Source: a virus
Taxonomy: Duplodnaviria; Caudoviricetes
Length of the DNA stretch: 33,403 nt
Reading direction: 5' to 3' (one strand)
IMG/VR virus record: IMGVR_UViG_3300044971_000339
Span: 1 to 33,403 of that record
The notes beneath the pieces are model-generated. The model was not told the origin of the DNA, searched no databases, and was given only the letters and a program-made list of their open reading frames with translations. How positions within the stretch are numbered: the stretch's first letter is position 1; each line of letters starts with the position of its first letter. Below, piece after piece: positions 2,578-20,145 of the stretch. The translations under genes and the position numbers were made by a program.

Positions 2578-4247
2578 AAGCCTACTTCAGTAGTTTCCAG
2601 CTTGCACACCCATCTCACGGTGTCCGATACAGCGCCAACACCGGATACACGCAAAGATCCATCAGTCGTATTAGCAGCAAGCGATAACGTCCAGGCTGAT
2701 GCCCCAGTATCTTCATAGCCAACGGTTACAGTCGATCCCGTTAGCACAGTTGTTGACGCACCAGAACCACGTTTAATCTGGCCTTCAAACGTCCAAGACT
2801 TTGTGTCGCCAGCCCCGGTTACGTTGGCAATTACAGATCCCTTGAAAAATATTGCCGAGTTGTCTTGCAGAGTCAGCACATTACGGGTAAACCCAGCAGA
2901 CAAACCATCGCTAGACATCGTTTTTGAACTATTGTTGGTCGTGACCATCCCCAACAACATTGAGCCGGTTTGCACCATCCCAACGGTCGTGCCAGTGAAC
3001 GGATTTGCGCCTGATTGCGCCGCATAACCAATCATCTGCCGAGCCGTTCCGTATATCCCACCAAGGATTACAGAATATTGCCCGTCAGCAAGGTTGGTGC
3101 TGCCACTCAACACAGCAGATCGAGAACCGCTTGCAGTGTTGCTAATACCGCCAGAAACATTAGAAAACGTGCCAGATGCGGTATTGGACGAGCCACCAGA
3201 CACTACAGCAGTGCTACTTGTCGCAGAGTTAGACTGTCCACCACCAATTGCAGAATAATCGCCAGACCCTGTGTTACTGCTACCACCAGAAATCGTGGCG
3301 TATTGGCCTGAGCTCGTATTACTTATTCCGCCGCCAACCGATCCGTATATTGCTGATGCAGCGTTAAGACGCCCACCAGAAATTGTGGTGTACTGATTAG
3401 AGGAGGCATTTGATAACCCGCCACCTACTGAAGAATAAGCACCAGAAGCAGCGTTTTGCCGACCTCCGGCAACAGTTGAATACTCGGTTGATGCAGTGTT
3501 AAATCTGCCGCCAGCAATTGTCGTATGCGTTGCACTCGCATTATTGTCAGCACCGCCGGCTACTGTCGAATAAAAACTGGTTGCAACATTCCCGCCGCCA
3601 CCACCAACTGTCGCGCCAGTCTGTGTCGCTTGACACAAACTTCCGCCAGCGACTGTGCTATTTGTCGCAGATGAAATATTTCCGTACCCGCCGCCGATGA
3701 CAGCCAACGATCCACTTGCCACCTGTGTAGCACCAGTGCGAACCGTCTGCCAGTCAACCGCATACGTTCCGCGCTTGTTCCCACCAGTCGTGGTTCCGTC
3801 TGGAACCTGTGCAAGTTTCGCCCCTGTTCCTTTCGGAACAAGCGCAATGTCGCCCGTTGCAGTCGTGACAGCAGCAGTAAGACTTGCGACGTTTACCGTG
3901 GCATTAGGCGAGGCACCATTGATTTCACCCGTCACCGGCAGACTATCAGTGCTTACTGACTTGCCAGCAGGGTATGTGCAGAACACATCTTTAACACCAG
4001 CACCAAATCCAACAAAATTGCCGTTGTTGCTGCTTGCAAGCACCGTGTCTCGAGTCAACGTGCCAGAACCAACCGTGCCGATACCGACTTCCCAGTCAAC
4101 AGTCCCTTGAATGCAGTAATAGGTCGTGTTGCCGTTGCCGATAGCCGAGAACGCTTGGTATCCCTGCACAGCGCCCAACAGGGTCAGCGTACCAGTCCCT
4201 TGTGTACTGGTTGTCTCTTTTACCCGGTCTTTCAGTACGAGTGCCAT
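2574..4247 (-). CDS. Tail fibre protein with 15-aa Gly-rich beta-solenoid repeats
   Basis: MALVLKDRVKETT N-terminal anchor; regular STVAGGxxNxAS repeats; follows the adaptor gene. Confidence 0.85.
   Translation of the reverse strand: MALVLKDRVKETTSTQGTGTLTLLGAVQGYQAFSAIGNGNTTYYCIQGTVDWEVGIGTVGSGTLTRDTVLASSNNGNFVGFGAGVKDVFCTYPAGKSVSTDSLPVTGEINGASPNATVNVASLTAAVTTATGDIALVPKGTGAKLAQVPDGTTTGGNKRGTYAVDWQTVRTGATQVASGSLAVIGGGYGNISSATNSTVAGGSLCQATQTGATVGGGGGNVATSFYSTVAGGADNNASATHTTIAGGRFNTASTEYSTVAGGRQNAASGAYSSVGGGLSNASSNQYTTISGGRLNAASAIYGSVGGGISNTSSGQYATISGGSSNTGSGDYSAIGGGQSNSATSSTAVVSGGSSNTASGTFSNVSGGISNTASGSRSAVLSGSTNLADGQYSVILGGIYGTARQMIGYAAQSGANPFTGTTVGMVQTGSMLLGMVTTNNSSKTMSSDGLSAGFTRNVLTLQDNSAIFFKGSVIANVTGAGDTKSWTFEGQIKRGSGASTTVLTGSTVTVGYEDTGASAWTLSLAANTTDGSLRVSGVGAVSDTVRWVCKLETTEVGF
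3045..3719 (-). repeat. About 15 tandem 15-codon (45 bp) degenerate repeats within the fibre
   Basis: GG (once SG) dipeptide recurs every 15 residues from about aa 186 to 397. Confidence 0.85.
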
Positions 4248-4867
4248 TATCGCGCCGCCACTCTCATTACCAACGGGCTAGCAGAAAACTCTGCCTTGTC
4301 ATCCGACTCCGATAGCGCAGCAATCCCCCTGTTGTACAGCGCACCCCAGACCTGCAATCGAGCGTCGTTCATAAGGTACGGCTCGGCTTCTCCCAGGCTT
4401 GCGTACAGGAGACAGTCCATCGCATTCACCGTCCAGACGTTCGTGGTGTTCGTGTCTGACAAAAACGCAGGAGCAGAGTAGTACAGCATCACCAAGGTGT
4501 ACGCAGTATCAGGCGTCGGAGCAAACTTGAACTCGTCCGCTAGGATCGTGTAGTCCACCGGCCTGCCTGACTCGTAACTGCGGGAGTTGCGAGTAAAGAG
4601 GCTCGGCGTCATGTAGTTCAACGGGTAAACCGGCTCACCTTCTGTGTACAGATCGCGAATTTGTAGGAAGTCAGACGGTAGCTGCACTGTGTCGTCGCCA
4701 CCAGTCGTGGAGGTGGTGACAGATCGAAGCATCTGCCGGATGCGAAGCTCTCTCCGCAAGCGAATCTCAGCCAGACGGATGAAATCCGGTATCTGACTGG
4801 TCAGATCACTTCTTGCGAGATAGCTTGCGATTGCGCTTTGCAGATCGCTGTAGGTCGTTAGGGCCAT
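4247..4867 (-). CDS. Head-tail adaptor protein
   Basis: MALTTYSDLQSAIASYLARSDLT..IPDFIRLAE..LPSDFL..LLYASLGEAEPYL pattern; position after the capsid gene. Confidence 0.8.
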   Translation of the reverse strand: MALTTYSDLQSAIASYLARSDLTSQIPDFIRLAEIRLRRELRIRQMLRSVTTSTTGGDDTVQLPSDFLQIRDLYTEGEPVYPLNYMTPSLFTRNSRSYESGRPVDYTILADEFKFAPTPDTAYTLVMLYYSAPAFLSDTNTTNVWTVNAMDCLLYASLGEAEPYLMNDARLQVWGALYNRGIAALSESDDKAEFSASPLVMRVAAR

Positions 4868-5516
4868 GCTTTACGTCATCCCAACCGAATGTTTTGACCC
4901 CTATGTGTCCGATGTGCATCGACAACTCGTGATCCACCCAGACAGGTATATCGTTCTCCATGCACCGGACACAGAACGTTACATCCTCTCCGATTACATT
5001 GCCGTGATCCGTCCAGATAACGTCAAACCACGGGCGCGGAACCTTCTCGAAAACTTCTTTGTTGACAAGTGTACAAGCAAACCCTACCGCTGTCACCTGC
5101 TCAATTCCCTTCTTGCCACGGCTCTCAACCTTGTGCCAAACCTGATAAGGCTCACCCGTAGGCTTGCCTTGCAGCATCTCGCGTTCGATCTTCAGGTTCA
5201 GCGCAGTCGGTAGGATCGGTTCGCGTCTGGTCGTGGCATTAACACCAACCATCTGAACCTGCCGAGATTGCAGGATCTCTAGCGTGTTGGCAGGGAATCG
5301 TTGGTCAGAGTCAATCCACAGTAGTTGATCCGCACCCCACTCCAGAGCCTCTTGCGCCAGTTTTTCGCGCTGGGTAAAGATCAGCGTCCCAGGCATTTGC
5401 AGGAGTTGAATGTCATTCACTCCACGCTTTGCCTCGTATGCACACAGCCTTGCAAGGTCGAAACAGAACCCTGCCATTACTTCATCTCGACACGGTACGC
5501 AAATAGCGACTTTCAA
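4806..5516 (-). CDS. GT-A fold (GT2-like) glycosyltransferase
   Basis: KVAICVP strand, LLWIDSD (DxD), AVGFACTLV, GEDVTFC and HIG motifs. Confidence 0.72.
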   Translation of the reverse strand: MKVAICVPCRDEVMAGFCFDLARLCAYEAKRGVNDIQLLQMPGTLIFTQREKLAQEALEWGADQLLWIDSDQRFPANTLEILQSRQVQMVGVNATTRREPILPTALNLKIEREMLQGKPTGEPYQVWHKVESRGKKGIEQVTAVGFACTLVNKEVFEKVPRPWFDVIWTDHGNVIGEDVTFCVRCMENDIPVWVDHELSMHIGHIGVKTFGWDDVKHGPNDLQRSAKRNRKLSRKK

Positions 5517-11766: not shown

Positions 11767-12456
11767 TTACATTTTACTACGTTCTGATATTAGCCTGTCA
11801 ATCTGCGGGTCGCCCACTTGCTCGGGTGATGGTGCAAACAGAGCGCGTTTCCGTCCGTCCGTGATACCAGGGTCGCACAAGTAATACATTGCTAGACTGT
11901 TTCTGGTGACATCCTCTGGGCAGGTAATCGGCTCCGGTAGCCCATGCCATGAACCGCGAGTGTCGAATATGACTGCGCGGTTGAAGTAAGGTTCGATTGA
12001 CTTTACTAGCTTACGGTTCCTGTCGTACAGCCCTAAATGCCCACCCCAGCATTCGTCCCAGTTGGGAGTCATGTAAACGATGATGTTTAGCCTGCGCTGA
12101 AGGTTCAGCTTTGGATGCAGGTTGTAATCCAGGTGGACGTTTAACTTGCCACCTCTGCCGTGCTGATGCAGTCCTCCACCGTGTAACCCGTAGTCTGGAT
12201 ACAGAGTGTCACCTGCCTTGTGGCCGAGGAACATTGTGAACCCAGGCTCACACATACTCTGAAAGGCTCGGTAGGTAGCTGGACCGAACCGTTGCCAGTT
12301 GTTGCAGGTCTGCTTGATCTCTAGCGGGTTGTCGTAGCGGAACCAGCAGTCATCGTCTGGATGCGGGAACTCTCGCGCTATTTCCTCCGCTTCCTCGAAG
12401 AAATCTTCAACGATAGCGTGCCAGAACGGGGTTTCGCTTATCGTTATCCTCACCAC
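11767..12456 (-). CDS. 2OG-Fe(II) oxygenase (prolyl 4-hydroxylase-like)
   Basis: HLD..SWHG..RNS facial triad and 2OG-binding motif; RRLNIIVY and FNRAVIF. Confidence 0.9.
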   Translation of the reverse strand: MVRITISETPFWHAIVEDFFEEAEEIAREFPHPDDDCWFRYDNPLEIKQTCNNWQRFGPATYRAFQSMCEPGFTMFLGHKAGDTLYPDYGLHGGGLHQHGRGGKLNVHLDYNLHPKLNLQRRLNIIVYMTPNWDECWGGHLGLYDRNRKLVKSIEPYFNRAVIFDTRGSWHGLPEPITCPEDVTRNSLAMYYLCDPGITDGRKRALFAPSPEQVGDPQIDRLISERSKM

Positions 12457-13346: not shown

Positions 13347-13997
13347 TCAGTCCTCGACAATAGAAGTTAGATGCCCAATCCGGCCCCTAACACCTATTTT
13401 ACCGACTTCGTTGAGAATGTCACGAGGCAGGAACTTGTAGAAACCGTGCTCCATGTCGAACACTTTTCCACTGTCCCACTGCTCGTGGAAGAACGCCTCT
13501 ATCTGCTCCAACGTCTCCAACATCTGCGGGATTACGTTGTAATCGAACGAATACAACCGGGTCATCAGCATACCGTCCGTCCCAACGTATTCCATGGGAT
13601 AACCGGTCTGCCTTGCCTGGGCAAACGTCGCCTTGTTTGCAACGTGAGCCTGGATGTTGAAGTGTTCAGTTAGCGTGTAGCGACCGGAAATCTTGAAAAC
13701 GTGACTGTAGCGATTCGGGATGTCATGCAGAATATTTATCGTTGTGTGCAACTCAATAGCGTTTTTGATATAGGCAACGTCTCGGTCTGTTTTTCTTACG
13801 TCTTGAATGAACTTTGAGCCGTAGTGTTTTACCGTCGCACGAGGAAATATCACGTTCTGATGCTCGAAACTCGATTCCAGCACCCAAATTGACGCAATCG
13901 GACACGCTCGGTGAATGCTCTCAATCGTTTGTTGCGTCTCATACAACCTTTGAGCATCGCCGTTGATTGCAGAAGTGACGATAAACAGAATCACCAT
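13347..13997 (-). CDS. Hypothetical protein, possibly glycosyltransferase-like
   Basis: FIVTSAIN first strand, VFKISGRY and DMEH motifs; coupled to the GT32 gene. Confidence 0.5.
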   Translation of the reverse strand: MVILFIVTSAINGDAQRLYETQQTIESIHRACPIASIWVLESSFEHQNVIFPRATVKHYGSKFIQDVRKTDRDVAYIKNAIELHTTINILHDIPNRYSHVFKISGRYTLTEHFNIQAHVANKATFAQARQTGYPMEYVGTDGMLMTRLYSFDYNVIPQMLETLEQIEAFFHEQWDSGKVFDMEHGFYKFLPRDILNEVGKIGVRGRIGHLTSIVED

Positions 13998-14596
13998 TTA
14001 CCTCGCGTTGACTTCCACTCCTGCCGAGCAAACACCATCTCACCGGAGTACGGGAGTCCAGCAAAATGATCCGGCAGGAAAAAGTGACTCGGCCAGATTG
14101 TAAGGTCACGGTATTGGTTATTCACCCAGGTACTCGTTAACCGTGTCGGACCACAGAACTGCCATGCCATCAGTTCACCCGGCTCGTCGTGCATCAGGTC
14201 ATCCACTATCTGACCGATGAACGGATGGCCAGGAATAGCACCCACTGCAGAGTTAGACAGCAACCCAGGTCTAAGAAGCTCCGACTCCCACGAGCACCAC
14301 ACATCCGGCTCTAGCATCCAGTCAGGAATGGCCCTAGAAGGCTCAGAATCGGCGTCTAGCGCGATTCCGCCGTGTTCGTAGAGTATCTCCCAGCGCATAC
14401 AGTCTGCTACGCCACAAAGCTCTGTTTTCCAAAAGTGCTTCATATGGCTTGCAAGCCTCCAACCTTTCGATAGGTCAGAGTTGTCCCACAGGTTAACTTC
14501 AAAGTCAGGGTTGAGGTTCTTCCACCGCTGGATGGTTTGCAGTGGTGCTTTGGTTTCGTCACCGACCCAGATGAAGTGCAGGATTTTCGGAATCAT
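13991..14596 (-). CDS. Glycosyltransferase family 32 (DxD sugar-binding, OCH1-like)
   Basis: MIPKILHFIW, ADCMRWEILYEHGGIALDAD, GHPFI and CGPTRLT motifs. Confidence 0.9.
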   Translation of the reverse strand: MIPKILHFIWVGDETKAPLQTIQRWKNLNPDFEVNLWDNSDLSKGWRLASHMKHFWKTELCGVADCMRWEILYEHGGIALDADSEPSRAIPDWMLEPDVWCSWESELLRPGLLSNSAVGAIPGHPFIGQIVDDLMHDEPGELMAWQFCGPTRLTSTWVNNQYRDLTIWPSHFFLPDHFAGLPYSGEMVFARQEWKSTRGKW

Positions 14597-17002: not shown

Positions 17003-17370
17003 AACCTCACTTTTTTGCTCTCTAGCATCTCTTTCATCTGTTTAAGAATCGCCTTGCCTTCATCGGAAACGTGCTTCGGGGCTGGCAACGACACGGTTTG
17101 GCGCTGCTCAACACGATCAAAGTCGCGACACATACCCATGAACTCCGACAAGCTGGGAGGCCAGTCTCGCCCAAGGCTGGGCAGGTTTTCGATGACCTTG
17201 CGGATGACTTCAGGCTTGGTCTTGCGGAGGAACGTCTCCCAGGCTTCGTTCGCAGCCATGATGCCGTTGTCGTCCTCCATGTACATCGCCTTCACCTTCT
17301 GGTTGCCGTACATCACCGAGAAGTGCTGCATCATGCGTTCAGCGTAAGGGTAGCGGGATGGCATTGGCAT
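16999..17370 (-). CDS. Putative helicase loader (lambda P-like)
   Basis: Follows the initiator; WPPSLSEFMGMCR motif; start at 17370 or 17364. Confidence 0.6.
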   Translation of the reverse strand: MPMPSRYPYAERMMQHFSVMYGNQKVKAMYMEDDNGIMAANEAWETFLRKTKPEVIRKVIENLPSLGRDWPPSLSEFMGMCRDFDRVEQRQTVSLPAPKHVSDEGKAILKQMKEMLESKKVRL

Positions 17371-18076
17371 CTCCCATGTCGATGAAGTCATCTTTCCTTT
17401 CCCACGAACCAAAGATCAGTTCAGACTTTCGGTCATTTTTAGCTTGCTGTGTATTGGGGGAAACCCTAGTGTTGCGCACCCAGTTGCGCCACGTTGCAAG
17501 CCAATCGGCCTTCAACCCTTTGCTCCCAGGCTGCGCGATCCAATAGTCGCGGAACGCATCGAACGTCTTGCGCGGGTCGATGTCTGGACGCTCCTGCTTG
17601 CAGAAGTCAATCCACTCATCCGGCACCTCCTGAAGATCAAAGCGCGTCGAGCGCGGTTTCTTTTCTTTTATATGGTTACTGGTTATTGGTTCTTGGTTAT
17701 TGGTTAGTTGAACATCTGTTGGCTGTGTGTTGGACACTTGCTCAACAGGTGTTGAACTTGTGTTGATCCTGTGTTCAGCAGATGCTTTACCAGCCTTGCT
17801 TCGCTTGTGGATAAGTTCCTTGTACTCCTTGATTTCAGCGTCACAGCGAGTGTGATGCCAGCAACCATCTTCTAGCCTGAAGAACGAGACAAGGATTAAT
17901 TGGACGGTTTTTTCGTCAGTCCCAAGCTGAAAGGCAAGGGCTTCTATGTCATCTGGAAGTGGCCGCTCGCGGTCGTAGTACATCCAGATCAGACGCAGGT
18001 AGGCCATCGACTGAGCATCTGTCAGCCTAGCGGTCGCCTTGACGAAATCACCGATGTGGTGATGGTAGTAATGCAC
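17339..18076 (-). CDS. Replication initiator, DUF1376/YdaU family
   Basis: HYYHHHIGDF..AYLRLIWMYYDRERPLPDD N-terminal domain; FRDYW..DWLATWRNW C-terminal domain; GTG start with GGAG SD. Confidence 0.85.
   Translation of the reverse strand: MHYYHHHIGDFVKATARLTDAQSMAYLRLIWMYYDRERPLPDDIEALAFQLGTDEKTVQLILVSFFRLEDGCWHHTRCDAEIKEYKELIHKRSKAGKASAEHRINTSSTPVEQVSNTQPTDVQLTNNQEPITSNHIKEKKPRSTRFDLQEVPDEWIDFCKQERPDIDPRKTFDAFRDYWIAQPGSKGLKADWLATWRNWVRNTRVSPNTQQAKNDRKSELIFGSWERKDDFIDMGDANAIPLPLR
17673..17780. repeat. Putative replication origin: 5x 7-mer TGGTT(A/C)N plus 7x TGTTGAACA-like iterons
   Basis: 7-mers at 17673-17707; 9-mers begin at 17706, 17717, 17728, 17739, 17750, 17761 and 17772 (11-bp period); adjacent T-rich tract. 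Confidence 0.8.
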
Positions 18077-18080
18077 GAAC

Positions 18081-18209
18081 AATCTCCATCGGTGCTGGCC
18101 TATCCGGTGGAAATTCCGGCAGGTCGCACCCAGGACGGGTTAGAAACGGTCAGATAGACCAGCCCGATAAAGACTGTCCGCTGACCTGCTATGCGCTTTC
18201 CACGGCGCA
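18081..18209 (-). ncRNA. Structured 5' leader RNA of the replication initiator (candidate translational switch)
   Basis: Non-coding gap downstream of a sigma70-type promoter, containing several complementary segments including one that covers the SD. Confidence 0.65.
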
Positions 18210-18214
18210 GAACG

Positions 18215-18243
18215 ATCATACGAAAACAAAGTTTGCCTGTAAA
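18215..18243 (-). promoter_or_regulatory. Sigma70-type promoter for the replication genes
   Basis: TTTACA-N17-TATGAT on the minus strand. Confidence 0.75.
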
Positions 18244-18267
18244 GCCTTACACCAACCTTACAGGCAA
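18222..18267 (-). terminator. Possible terminator hairpin after the Cys-rich peptide gene, overlapping the -35 box
   Basis: TTGCCTGTAA (18233-18242) and TTACAGGCAA (18258-18267) are an inverted repeat, followed on minus by ACUUUGUUUU. Confidence 0.5.
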
Positions 18268-18272
18268 CCCTG

Positions 18273-18422
18273 CTAGAAACAATTGGTATTGCAATTCCCC
18301 CCAAAACAACAGGTAGTGCAAGTCACCATCCTGCCGTTGATTGTGTATGTGTGCGTGCTGCAAGCAGCGTAAGCAACACTCGCAACAAGTGAGAACAACA
18401 GACCTACTGCTACTTTTTTCAT
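18273..18422 (-). CDS. Secreted six-cysteine miniprotein (49 aa precursor)
   Basis: AAGGAGGT SD; MKK + hydrophobic core + AYA signal peptide; mature ACSTHTYTINGRMVTCTTCCFGGNCNTNCF. Confidence 0.85.
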   Translation of the reverse strand: MKKVAVGLLFSLVASVAYAACSTHTYTINGRMVTCTTCCFGGNCNTNCF

Positions 18423-18472
18423 CTCGACCTCCTTGTAGTGAAAAACACCTGCTATAGAACCTTTTCCCCGCA

Positions 18473-18760
18473 CTACTTGACACTGATTCTTCCAGCCTCG
18501 CATAGCGCAACCAACGTCTTGCGAAACGCATCCTCCCAGGCTTCCCGCCTTTCCTCTCCCGACATCTTCGCCCCCTGGTCGATGGCAAAGTGGCAGTGCT
18601 GACAAAGTGCCGCGGTAAAGCAGTCGTGCGACTTCATCCCCATGCCCTTACCGTATGCACCCCAGTTGGCATGAGCAGCTTGTGTCTGACCGTCCAGACC
18701 ACATCGCTGGCAGGATAGAGAGGCAACGGCTTTTAACCATGACTTACTGCGGAACATCAA
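18473..18760 (-). CDS. HNH-like nuclease (DUF968/Ref-like)
   Basis: RSKSWLKAVASLSCQRCG..AAH..GMGMKSHD..LCQHCH. Confidence 0.75.
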   Translation of the reverse strand: MMFRSKSWLKAVASLSCQRCGLDGQTQAAHANWGAYGKGMGMKSHDCFTAALCQHCHFAIDQGAKMSGEERREAWEDAFRKTLVALCEAGRISVK

Positions 18761-18944
18761 TCACCTCAACATGACAAGAGTGATGCAAGCTAGTCTCTCG
18801 ACCGTCGCGCTCCACAACGTGACGCATACCGGACGGGGTTCTGATCTCCAGGCGCAGGTAGGTATACACCTCACCCGTCCGTAATAGAATGAACCGCTGC
18901 CCCGGATTTACCCTTCGCACTCGCGTGACACTTTCTGAGTTCAT
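18744..18944 (-). CDS. Hypothetical protein
   Basis: GAGG before ATG; fills the operon gap. Confidence 0.6.
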   Translation of the reverse strand: MNSESVTRVRRVNPGQRFILLRTGEVYTYLRLEIRTPSGMRHVVERDGRETSLHHSCHVEVIDVPQ

Positions 18945-19182
18945 CCTCTAGTTCCCTCCTTGCTGGCATCCCTCTGGCCTTCTCTACCTGCTCCAGATGC
19001 TCCCTGCGTTTCTTGATCGGCCAGCGTAAAACCGTCTGAGCCTCGCAATAGAGCGCGTACTCTCTCGACTGCAGACCTACGGTGCCAGTAGGGAGGCTGA
19101 TGAGTCGTGCGTTGTCGTGTCTGCGTCCACACGCAAAACAGACATCTCGTCCGTCATCGTCAACCCGTGATTCGTCGCCCAT
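18871..19182 (-). CDS. Hypothetical protein (CEAQTVLRW..RREHLEQVEKARG)
   Basis: Phage-like motif with N-terminal CxxC; start uncertain because it overlaps ninB. Confidence 0.55.
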   Translation of the reverse strand: MGDESRVDDDGRDVCFACGRRHDNARLISLPTGTVGLQSREYALYCEAQTVLRWPIKKRREHLEQVEKARGMPARRELEDELRKCHASAKGKSGAAVHSITDG

Positions 19183-19511
19183 GCGAAAACCTTCTCAACG
19201 TAGTCTGAAAACTGACCCTTCGTCAGCCCTGTTGTAGTCGGCTCCTGCTCGACAATCTGACCGTTCGGAAGCTCGACAACCCTCCCAGGTAGATAGCGAG
19301 CCTTGAAGTAGCTATGCCAGATGTCGGGAGAGTGCTCCTTACCCTGCGGCCTGATCTGCTCGCTGATCGCTGTTAGGGTGGCCCAGTAGAACGAGTTTTG
19401 GGCGCTCGTTCGGTTGGGTGGCTGGATGGATACCACCCAACCCGGTTTAGCGGCTGATACGGCTTGCAATGCGCGTTTACGGGCAGTCTCGTTGGCTAGC
19501 GTGTAAATCAC
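19077..19511 (-). CDS. ninB: NinB/Orf-family recombination protein
   Basis: RTSAQNSFYWATLTAISEQ..WHSYFK..TTGLTKGQFSDYVEKVFAW. Confidence 0.85.
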   Translation of the reverse strand: MIYTLANETARKRALQAVSAAKPGWVVSIQPPNRTSAQNSFYWATLTAISEQIRPQGKEHSPDIWHSYFKARYLPGRVVELPNGQIVEQEPTTTGLTKGQFSDYVEKVFAWATNHGLTMTDEMSVLRVDADTTTHDSSASLLAP

Positions 19512-19813
19512 AGTTCAACCTCTTTCAGTTGCCACCTGTTGCCTTCCTTGAACCACCCATGTAGCACCACCCGCCACCCTGAACGCAGCATCTCTGGGTA
19601 AGCCTCGGCTTCTTCGATCTTGTGTTTGCGAGCAGACAGGTTTGACTTGCTTGTCACCTGGATTGCTACTGTCTCTCCGTGACCGATTGCCAGCAGATCG
19701 ATACAGCCCCACAAGTCATGCTTGCGCTTGGTGAAGCTGTTGTAGTGCTCGACTAGAGCCACCTGATAGCCTCGCTCTACAAGCAGCGCTTTACTTCGGG
19801 CTGTTAAGGTCAT
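19508..19813 (-). CDS. PD-(D/E)XK-like nuclease, possible resolvase
   Basis: LVERGYQV..DLWGCIDLLAI..VAIQVTS. Confidence 0.55.
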   Translation of the reverse strand: MTLTARSKALLVERGYQVALVEHYNSFTKRKHDLWGCIDLLAIGHGETVAIQVTSKSNLSARKHKIEEAEAYPEMLRSGWRVVLHGWFKEGNRWQLKEVEL

Positions 19814-20006
19814 AGTCCGGTCTCAACATTGCCAACGTCACTCGACCCCCTGTCAGTCGCTCGATCTCCACCGCACGATTGAGAGGGACTCGACCGGCTC
19901 GCCTCCAATTGTGGATAGCCTGCCGCTTGAGTCCCAACAAGCTGCACAGCTTTCCCTTGCCGCCGATGATTGCTGCTGCCAGCGCGATTGCCTGTTCCTG
20001 CGTCAT
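19791..20006 (-). CDS. cro: Cro/YdaS-like HTH regulator
   Basis: GGKGKLCSLLGLKRQAIHNW..VPLNRAVEIERLTGGRVTLAMLRPD; first gene of the leftward operon. Confidence 0.85.
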   Translation of the reverse strand: MTQEQAIALAAAIIGGKGKLCSLLGLKRQAIHNWRRAGRVPLNRAVEIERLTGGRVTLAMLRPDYDLNSPK

Positions 20007-20026
20007 GTCACCCCCGTAAAGTTGCG

Positions 20027-20055
20027 ATAGTATGACATTGTAGCGACATACGCAA
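20027..20055 (-). promoter_or_regulatory. Leftward early promoter
   Basis: TTGCGT-N17-TACTAT on minus, upstream of cro. Confidence 0.7.
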
Positions 20056-20096
20056 TACATAGGCGTTAGCCGTTGCCTATAGGTGTCGCAAGAACG

Positions 20097-20145
20097 ATAA
20101 AAATATTTATCCACACAATGCCAAAGAGATGACATATGATGTCAA
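20097..20145 (+). promoter_or_regulatory. Probable rightward early promoter
   Basis: TATGAT at 20135-20140 with an AT-rich upstream tract; the -35 match is poor (CACACA). Confidence 0.45.

Follow-up and report, generated by a model that had tools for sequence, protein, structure and literature searches.

To our knowledge, very few small exported phage proteins that control entry or lysis have been characterized, and hardly any of them come from environmental phages. The T4 proteins Sp and Imm and the T5 protein Llp are established precedents for the exclusion of other phages. On the bacterial side, the HXS system is reported to have a periplasmic effector that blocks phage DNA entry (PMC13128918). 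Here, we describe a short gene in the IMG/VR virus record IMGVR_UViG_3300044971_000339, a stretch of 33,403 nucleotides (33.4 kb, completeness rated at about 95%) that is called the window below. The gene lies on the minus strand at 18273-18422, and its product is very probably a real exported disulfide miniprotein. It belongs to a large family found mostly in lake and fresh water, and we consider below what such a peptide might do in the infected cell.

RESULTS

The peptide gene and its export signal

The peptide open reading frame (ORF) consists of 49 codons running from an ATG at 18422-18420 to a TAG at 18275-18273. Translation of the window sequence gives a signal part followed by a mature part of 30 residues, in which six cysteines are spaced C-x13-C-x2-CC-x4-C-x3-C. 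The features of the locus are as follows (nt, nucleotides).

18427..18434, minus strand: Shine-Dalgarno (SD) sequence AAGGAGGT, 4 nt 5' of the ATG, read directly
18366..18422, minus strand: signal peptide, residues 1 to 19 (MKKVAVGLLFSLVASVAYA), with a predicted signal peptidase I cut after AYA
18276..18365, minus strand: mature 30-residue six-Cys peptide (ACSTHTYTINGRMVTCTTCCFGGNCNTNCF), a predicted three-stranded antiparallel sheet with three cross-strand disulfides
18273..18275, minus strand: stop codon TAG, one residue beyond the last Cys, read directly
18223..18267, minus strand: terminator-like hairpin with a T-rich tail, 14 pairs and a loop of 7, directly 3' of the stop

A preliminary description of this locus, made from the letters of the sequence, had pointed to the SD sequence, the signal peptide ending in AYA, the cysteine spacing, and the hairpin. 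All of these are present, on the minus strand, which that description left unstated. A longer in-frame version beginning with TTG (18273-18605, 110 amino acids) is also found in the ORF list. Relatives have unrelated sequence or stop codons upstream of the MKK start, and the ATG at 18422 is therefore taken as the true start.

The signal peptide was assessed by rule and by family conservation. The window signal has a basic n-region (MKK), an uncharged h-region, and an A-x-A motif (AYA), and by rule these are the features of a signal peptidase I substrate, including small residues at positions -3 and -1. We pooled 118 unique family sequences, of which 115 could be indexed on the first cysteine (C1). 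A small-x-Ala motif stands one residue before C1 in 95 of these 115 members and zero to four residues before it in 113. In the model of a divergent precursor, P0035, the signal part forms a helix at residues 2-16. Given that the members form a single homologous set and that C1 would act as a disulfide partner, we assign the signal to the signal peptidase I type; Sec export and cleavage after AYA are predicted.

Family size and conservation

Conservation of the signal peptide and the cysteine pattern among homologs was the check on which the preliminary description had staked its claim, and protein, profile, and viral-contig searches all returned homologs that keep both. A word-based protein search yielded 11 clusters with 63 to 90% identity, in all of which the six cysteines are invariant. 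A profile of the mature part, run against 1.84 billion representatives, gave 58 clusters at an E value of ≤1e-3, one of which, the 575-amino-acid repeat translation P0063, was rejected as spurious. Nearly all of the remaining clusters are 47 to 60 amino acids long, with the conserved domain at the C terminus behind a signal peptide. In two longer sequences, P0049 (122 amino acids) and P0054 (119 amino acids), about 70 additional N-terminal residues that include hydrophobic segments precede the usual signal and mature domain; these may be fused forms or over-long gene calls. In viral contigs, at least 600 stretches were matched by the scan, and tblastn confirmed a relative in 409 of 600. All 80 loci that were kept carry an intact copy; a script parsed 78 of them, which gave 52 distinct precursors and 45 distinct mature peptides. 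The length is exactly 49 amino acids in 74 of the 78 parsed copies.

The 45 mature variants are 60 to 83% identical to the mature peptide of the window. Among the 49 gap-free members of 49 amino acids, the proportion of synonymous differences (pS) was 0.72 in the signal part and 0.83 in the mature part, indicating synonymous sites close to saturation. The ratio of nonsynonymous to synonymous proportions (pN/pS) was 0.55 in the signal part versus 0.27 in the mature part, with pN slightly inflated by two members, L048 and L060, that are offset by indels. Both TGC and TGT are used in every cysteine column of the same 49 members, and an SD-like motif is found within 18 nt of the start in all 52 unique loci. 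Of 67 representatives, 64 keep all six cysteines. C6 is followed by exactly one residue in 112 of the 115 indexed members, and 95 members end in F or Y. As judged from these sequence comparisons, the peptide gene is real and its mature part is under purifying selection.

Predicted fold and disulfides

AlphaFold2 modeling from 45 mature sequences gave a predicted local distance difference test (pLDDT) score of 90.7, with strands at residues 2-9, 12-21, and 24-29. The divergent precursor P0035, which is 37 to 55% identical to its alignment rows, was modeled with a pLDDT of 84.2 and strands at 21-29, 32-41, and 44-49; its strand register is identical to that of the mature window model, a three-stranded beta-meander. 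The BFVD model of another family member superposed with a root mean square deviation of 1.1 Å over 30 residues. Two-residue turns at N10-G11 and G22-G23 connect the strands, and the register sets C2 opposite C19, C16 opposite C29, and C20 opposite C25. Disulfide pairs C1-C3, C2-C6, and C4-C5, forming a cross-strand ladder, are predicted on this basis, from strand register. Length variation is confined to the two turns: C1 and C2 are separated by 13 residues in 103 members and by 14 in 12, C4 and C5 by 4 residues in 102 members and by 5 to 7 in 13. Among the 67 representatives, P0029 is without C1 and C3, and P0044 is without C4 and C5. The restriction of indels to the turns and the loss of a predicted pair in each of these two variants are both consistent with the predicted pairing. 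P0013 does not agree with it, having lost C1 and C6; this sequence has also lost its stop codon and carries a read-through tail, and it is probably decayed.

The mature peptides are rich in Thr (23.9%), Cys (20.4%), and Asn (9.4%), and their net charge is +1 in 90 of 115 members and 0 in 21. One conserved face of the sheet displays T4, T6, T15, T17, N24, N26, and N28 together with aromatics at positions 21 and 30. The other face, likewise conserved, displays S3, H5, Y7, V14, T18, T27, and two of the disulfides. A role for His5 as a metal ligand was considered and rejected, the residue being S, T, or Q in 9 of 49 members.

A Foldseek search against the PDB gave a best E value of 1.2, and a wide VIA search gave a best Z of 3.4; both returned generic meanders only, and no defensin was among the rows of either, with the proviso that short models match poorly. 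A likeness to defensins or knottins had been suggested for the peptide. The models do not bear this out: they predict a flat meander braced by the ladder described above, and the charge is +1 or 0 in 111 of the 115 members. We regard the peptide as a confidently predicted new mini-fold. The broader proposal, that this is a genuine gene for an exported three-disulfide miniprotein, holds up well, the homologs keeping the signal and cysteine pattern from which export and disulfides are predicted.

Database and literature searches

No family in Pfam, PHROGs, NCBIfam (searched with 12 members), or PADLOC scored above the cutoff for the peptide. The library matches below threshold were to the signal peptide only, for example to MerP. 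A PDB profile search returned one chance row, at an E value of 2.7, and nothing else at an E value of ≤10. ESM Atlas held only unnamed clusters of the same peptide family. In UniProt, an 83%-identical member (A0A6J5M8Q5, also in BFVD) is labeled "Lipoprotein," a name that we return to below. Among INPHARED phages, nothing matched in a megablast search with 17300-19900, a tblastn search with the window peptide, or a blastn search with the gene, although low-complexity filtering may mask the peptide. When another family member served as the query, two uncultured-phage records were found there. Annotation was checked in one of these two GenBank records, MW202544.1, from an uncultured spring-water phage. 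It encodes a 47-amino-acid family member at 4004-4144 on the plus strand that is unannotated; the deposited coding sequence beneath it is on the opposite strand, and a DUF1376-like gene comes next at 4273-4974. No paper was found in a literature search for the motif VTCTTCC, and searches with literature terms turned up no such peptide. The family is thus unnamed and often unannotated.

Habitat and hosts

A 2.6-kb region around the gene was found in lake, freshwater, and drinking-water metagenome runs of many studies, and no RNA run was among the sequencing runs containing it. Across the viral collection, we estimate that about 1,100 stretches carry the family, mostly from lake and fresh water. 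Species genomes gave a very different picture. Among 185,579 GTDB species genomes, a first scan gave no matches, and one true copy was eventually found, on a contig of a Burkholderiaceae metagenome-assembled genome (locus L082). A 10-residue match in the GTDB scan (L083) was set aside. None of the 52 scanned ORFs of the window matched an integrase family. A role in lysogenic conversion is unlikely because of this single occurrence in 185,579 species genomes and the absence of an integrase among those ORFs, and the peptide should work during lytic growth. The same 52 ORFs include no clear CI-type repressor.

Gene order in the window

The window carries a P22-like set of portal, scaffold, major head, ejection, and tailspike-type genes, as well as a GH108 endolysin and a holin. 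The peptide gene is part of a minus-strand series consisting of a Cro/YdaS-like gene, a 101-amino-acid ORF, NinB, DUF7696, a 66-amino-acid ORF, a DUF968/HNH-like gene, the peptide gene, a 190-nt gap, and DUF1376. The features on either side of the peptide gene are as follows.

18473..18760, minus strand: upstream gene, DUF968/HNH-type nuclease-like (PF06147, E value 1.5e-8; phrog_131 HNH endonuclease, E value 1.3e-26), 50 nt before the peptide start
18215..18243, minus strand: sigma-70-like promoter match TTTACA-17-TATGAT, 10 of 12 consensus matches, overlapping the 3' arm of the hairpin and facing the DUF1376 gene
17339..18082, minus strand: downstream gene, DUF1376 replication/primosomal type (PF07120, E value 3.1e-21; phrog_3992 primosomal protein, E value 5.2e-32), 190 nt past the peptide stop

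The arms of the hairpin span 18267-18233 and are followed by ACTTTGTTTT. It is the sole terminator-like site within 17900-18900, a region in which shuffled sequence gives a mean of 0.9 such sites. The hairpin is present in six of eight close relatives that were aligned (L002, L003, L006, L014, L015, and L011), with one compensatory change from T:A to G:C in L015 and L011, and it is not conserved family-wide. The promoter-like block, called from its consensus match only, is kept in the same six relatives. The 190-nt gap before the DUF1376 gene (18083-18272, minus strand) contains the hairpin, whose 3' arm includes the -35 element of the promoter-like site. The leader 3' of that site folds strongly, with a minimum free energy of -87.7 kcal/mol and a z score of -4.9 for 18083-18290. 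The whole window is without an Rfam match at gathering thresholds, and 18050-18300 gave chance rows only.

Elsewhere in the window, the Cro/YdaS-like gene (19791-20135, minus strand) faces an operon of Erf and YqaJ on the plus strand. Two minus-strand genes lie between the replication and packaging genes: one with a DXD-type glycosyltransferase domain (13991-14596; PF12919 and PF04488 rows) and one for a 2OG-Fe(II) oxygenase (11767-12456). The idea that these might modify the peptide into a glycopeptide was dropped: within the flanks examined, no relative carried the oxygenase, and the transferase recurred in just the three nearest relatives.

Genomic context across the family

Context was scanned for the two nearest nonoverlapping ORFs on each side of the peptide gene at 53 loci (52 unique viral loci and L082), a total of 205 ORFs. 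The families were distributed by position as follows.

Position -2: ERF, 8 of 53 loci
Position -2: YqaJ, 6 of 53 loci
Position -2: RecT, 1 of 53 loci
Position -1: Cro-like, 3 of 53 loci
Position -1: DUF968, 3 of 53 loci, plus the window
Position +1 or +2: DUF1376, 9 of 53 loci
Position +1: PD-(D/E)XK, 4 of 53 loci
Position +2: MazG, 7 of 53 loci

Winged helix-turn-helix and other genes are also among the downstream neighbors. No neighbor within two genes on either side is co-conserved with the peptide gene, and the proteins at position +1 are of cytoplasmic types. The nearest upstream ORF is on the same strand in 39 of 52 loci, usually ending -4 to +19 nt from the peptide start; the exceptions in spacing are L007 (40 nt), L073 (348 nt), and L080 (247 nt). 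The gap downstream of the peptide gene is usually longer than the one upstream. Close relatives share the peptide gene with its hairpin/promoter block, yet they show three different upstream junctions. We conclude that the peptide gene is a mobile single-gene unit that mostly ends early transcription units.

These comparisons change two parts of the earlier picture. The peptide had been thought unusual for an early phage operon, whereas its gene recurs in the early modules of many phage contigs. A functional link to the replication promoter and RNA leader had also been raised. It is not seen family-wide: beyond the loci with a downstream DUF1376 gene, the peptide is followed by PD-(D/E)XK, winged helix-turn-helix, or other genes. 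The arrangement downstream in the window is one of several, and so its replication gene and leader are not a feature of the family.

Several further features of the flanks were observed. In 23 of the 52 unique loci (for example, L023:3733-3984), the upstream gene encodes a protein of 79 to 92 amino acids, in some cases 140 to 216, that has no Pfam match and ends in an acidic DDIPF, DDVPF, or DDINF tail. We take this tail to resemble the C-terminal tip of single-stranded DNA-binding protein, an assumption that no family match supports. The usual order at these loci is Erf or YqaJ, then the acidic-tail protein, then the peptide. An RNA-like motif begins 9 to 12 nt past the peptide stop, on the same strand, in 13 of the 52 unique loci (L022, L023, L034, L035, L044, L046, L047, L049, L051, L052, L053, L068, and L074; for example, L047:4160-4250). 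It has an outer GGCC/GGCC helix with compensatory variation (one pair is CG in 8 and GC in 6, another is UA in 5 and GC in 4), conserved internal GAAAGC...GAGUAG strands, and a variable inner hairpin, and it has no Rfam match. The internal strands are presumably loop-E-like. Three loci have an Rfam int-alpA RNA (RF02996, small RNA type) directly past the stop, at L063:2955-3023, L072:4162-4230, and L056:3846-3913; these matches score 36.7 to 38.9 bits, compared with a gathering score of 35.8. By a simple pattern, a similar GGCUAG...GAAAAG sequence follows the peptide gene in 9 of the 52 unique loci.

DISCUSSION

A proposed role in the envelope of the infected cell

We propose that Sec would export the 49-residue precursor, that signal peptidase I would cleave it after AYA, and that oxidation would give a 30-residue three-disulfide sheet. 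The peptide would be expressed early in the lytic cycle, along with recombination, Cro, or nuclease genes, and it would need no phage-encoded partner, since no neighbor is co-conserved. As a rigid, near-neutral, two-faced sheet rich in Thr, Asn, and aromatics, the peptide could bind a component common to many hosts. A shared host target is suggested because the peptide is almost invariant across phages of differing GC and gene content. Acting in the periplasm of the infected cell, it would bind a conserved envelope component, either a glycan or an envelope machine, and its purpose would be to close the envelope to later-arriving phages. We give this explanation as a whole, an early periplasmic binder of a conserved envelope component, an even chance of being correct, and we would likewise wager neither for nor against action on the envelope of the producing cell. 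That the purpose is specifically superinfection exclusion is a tentative suggestion by analogy, possible yet rather doubtful. A still more specific version is quite improbable: that the disulfide-laddered sheet caps the beta-edge of a periplasmic machine, such as the lipopolysaccharide-transport bridge or BamA, or coats a glycan, and thereby shuts the cell surface. If it were true, a natural envelope blocker from freshwater phages would represent a new structural class among ligands of the Gram-negative envelope, in which a single, nearly invariant sequence serves for many hosts.

Several observations weigh against an early envelope binder made as a simple secreted peptide, in addition to the nonfitting cysteine losses of P0013 and the indirect assignment of the disulfides noted above. 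No structural or sequence relative of known function was found in the library, PDB-profile, or fold searches. In L082, the peptide gene is flanked by an HNH gene and the terminase genes and is not in an early module. The strong conservation of the mature peptide would equally fit lysis control or extracellular activity after lysis. A loose PROSITE-style lipobox pattern fits 38 of the 115 members, and one member bears the UniProt name "Lipoprotein."

Alternative roles

Of the alternatives, the one that survives best, although we think it unlikely, is that the peptide acts outside the producer after lysis, as an antimicrobial or bacteriocin-like agent against competitors or grazers or as an arbitrium-like signal. 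A small peptide made rigid by disulfides is likely to be stable outside cells, it is encoded by a single gene without a partner, and, like AimP, it carries a signal peptide (PMC11323111). However, its mature sequence hardly differs from phage to phage, the reverse of what a phage-specific code would look like, and no immunity, AimR-type receptor, or transporter gene is co-conserved within two genes on each side. The near-neutral charge is unlike that of cationic membrane-active peptides. At about 3 kDa, the peptide is also too large to cross the Gram-negative outer membrane, given porin limits.

A role in tuning lysis, as a periplasmic antiholin-like factor or an endolysin- or peptidoglycan-binding factor that delays lysis or guards against premature or external lysis, is distinctly unlikely. 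The peptide would be periplasmic and early, as is T4 RI, the Thr, Asn, and aromatic residues on its conserved face are of types that often bind glycans, and the window itself has a GH108 endolysin and a holin. Nevertheless, the peptide gene never adjoins lysis genes in the loci examined, and its conservation is far above that expected of a protein tracking diverse holins.

We consider it very unlikely that the product is a small lipoprotein, in which signal peptidase II would cut before C1 and leave a lipidated, membrane-anchored peptide of 29 residues. Models for such a protein are the receptor-blocking phage lipoproteins Llp and Cor and the o-spanin Rz1. In addition to the database name and the loose pattern already mentioned, a cysteine follows a hydrophobic segment, and 70 of the 115 members have A, S, or G immediately before C1. 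In the other 45, however, the residue at that place is N, Q, T, R, Y, E, D, H, or K, and at position -3, 69 members have W or Y and 11 have L, V, or I. Only 5 of the 115 contain the strict lipobox [LVI][ASTVI][GAS]C, which does not class the family with lipoproteins. The distance from the A-x-A motif to C1 also varies from zero to four residues. C1 is predicted to pair with C3, and both are missing together in P0029; lipidation of C1 would leave five cysteines. The fit of the loose pattern probably explains the UniProt name.

Two further possibilities are highly unlikely: a ribosomally synthesized and posttranslationally modified peptide (RiPP) precursor, with a Cys/Ser/Thr core and a maturase, and a type I toxin-like membrane peptide under the control of the downstream structured RNA. 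The core is rich in Thr and Cys, and structured RNA starts 9 to 43 nt past the stop in 22 of the 52 unique loci. Against the first, neither the ORFs of the window nor the two genes on each side at the 53 loci gave a match to a radical-SAM, lanthipeptide, or YcaO-type family, the NCBIfam search of 12 members gave no precursor family, and the leader is a classical cleavable signal peptide. Against the second, the hydrophobic part is variable and the polar part conserved, the reverse of membrane toxins, and the SD sequence is strong and not visibly occluded. Finally, a chance ORF, or conservation that belongs to the opposite strand or to an RNA, would fit the very short frame and the opposite-strand annotation in GenBank, but its likelihood is negligible, being refuted as far as comparative data go by amino acids conserved despite near-saturated synonymous change, retention of all six cysteines with mixed codons, a nearly constant length, and an SD sequence at every unique locus.

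Returning to the preferred explanation, an early periplasmic binder of the host envelope, the mature peptide is short enough to be synthesized or expressed directly, and its target, presumably shared by many Burkholderiaceae-type hosts, would be retrievable with it. Should that target prove to be an essential machine of the envelope, the peptide would serve as a tool and also as a lead. Should the peptide prove to be an exclusion factor, it would give insight into competition among uncultured freshwater phages. A separate idea, drawn by analogy and offered as a lead only, is that the flat Thr/Cys-rich face binds ice in lake bacteria.

Comparison with known systems

Knottins and defensins resemble the peptide in having about 30 residues, six cysteines, three disulfides, and a small three-stranded sheet. 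The knottin knot is C1-C4, C2-C5, C3-C6, in contrast to the predicted ladder C1-C3, C2-C6, C4-C5; defensin patterns are also unlike it, and defensins are cationic whereas the peptide is near-neutral. Beetle antifreeze proteins of the TmAFP type are alike in composition (Thr about 24% and Cys about 20%), in the T-C-T motif, and in having a disulfide-braced flat sheet with rows of Thr or Asn. They differ in being beta-helices of 12-residue repeats, whereas the peptide is a single three-strand sheet with no repeat, and no antifreeze protein appeared in the PDB profile search. Thanatin and darobactin, which block Lpt or BamA by edge pairing, are likewise small, rigid beta peptides with free edges that act at the Gram-negative envelope, although they are of insect or modified bacterial origin and are applied from outside, and they are not known to be related to the peptide in sequence.

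Among phage proteins, the peptide can be likened by analogy to T4 Spackle (Sp) and Imm, T5 Llp, and Cor, which are small proteins with export signals that are made in infection and act on the envelope without a phage partner. No sequence or fold similarity to these four was found; Sp is larger and is not disulfide-laddered, and Llp and Cor are lipoproteins, whereas the peptide family fails the lipobox test. The arbitrium peptide AimP belongs to Gram-positive phages and is processed to a hexapeptide that varies by phage and is paired with aimR, whereas the mature peptide described here barely varies and its gene has no receptor gene as a neighbor. The two share a short phage-encoded precursor with a signal peptide (PMC11323111). 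HxsA differs from the peptide in being host-encoded and larger, with a peptidoglycan-binding domain, HxS repeats, and radical-SAM maturation, none of which is seen here; it is alike in being an exported periplasmic effector, and its reported ability to stop phage DNA entry offers a precedent for the proposed site of action (PMC13128918).

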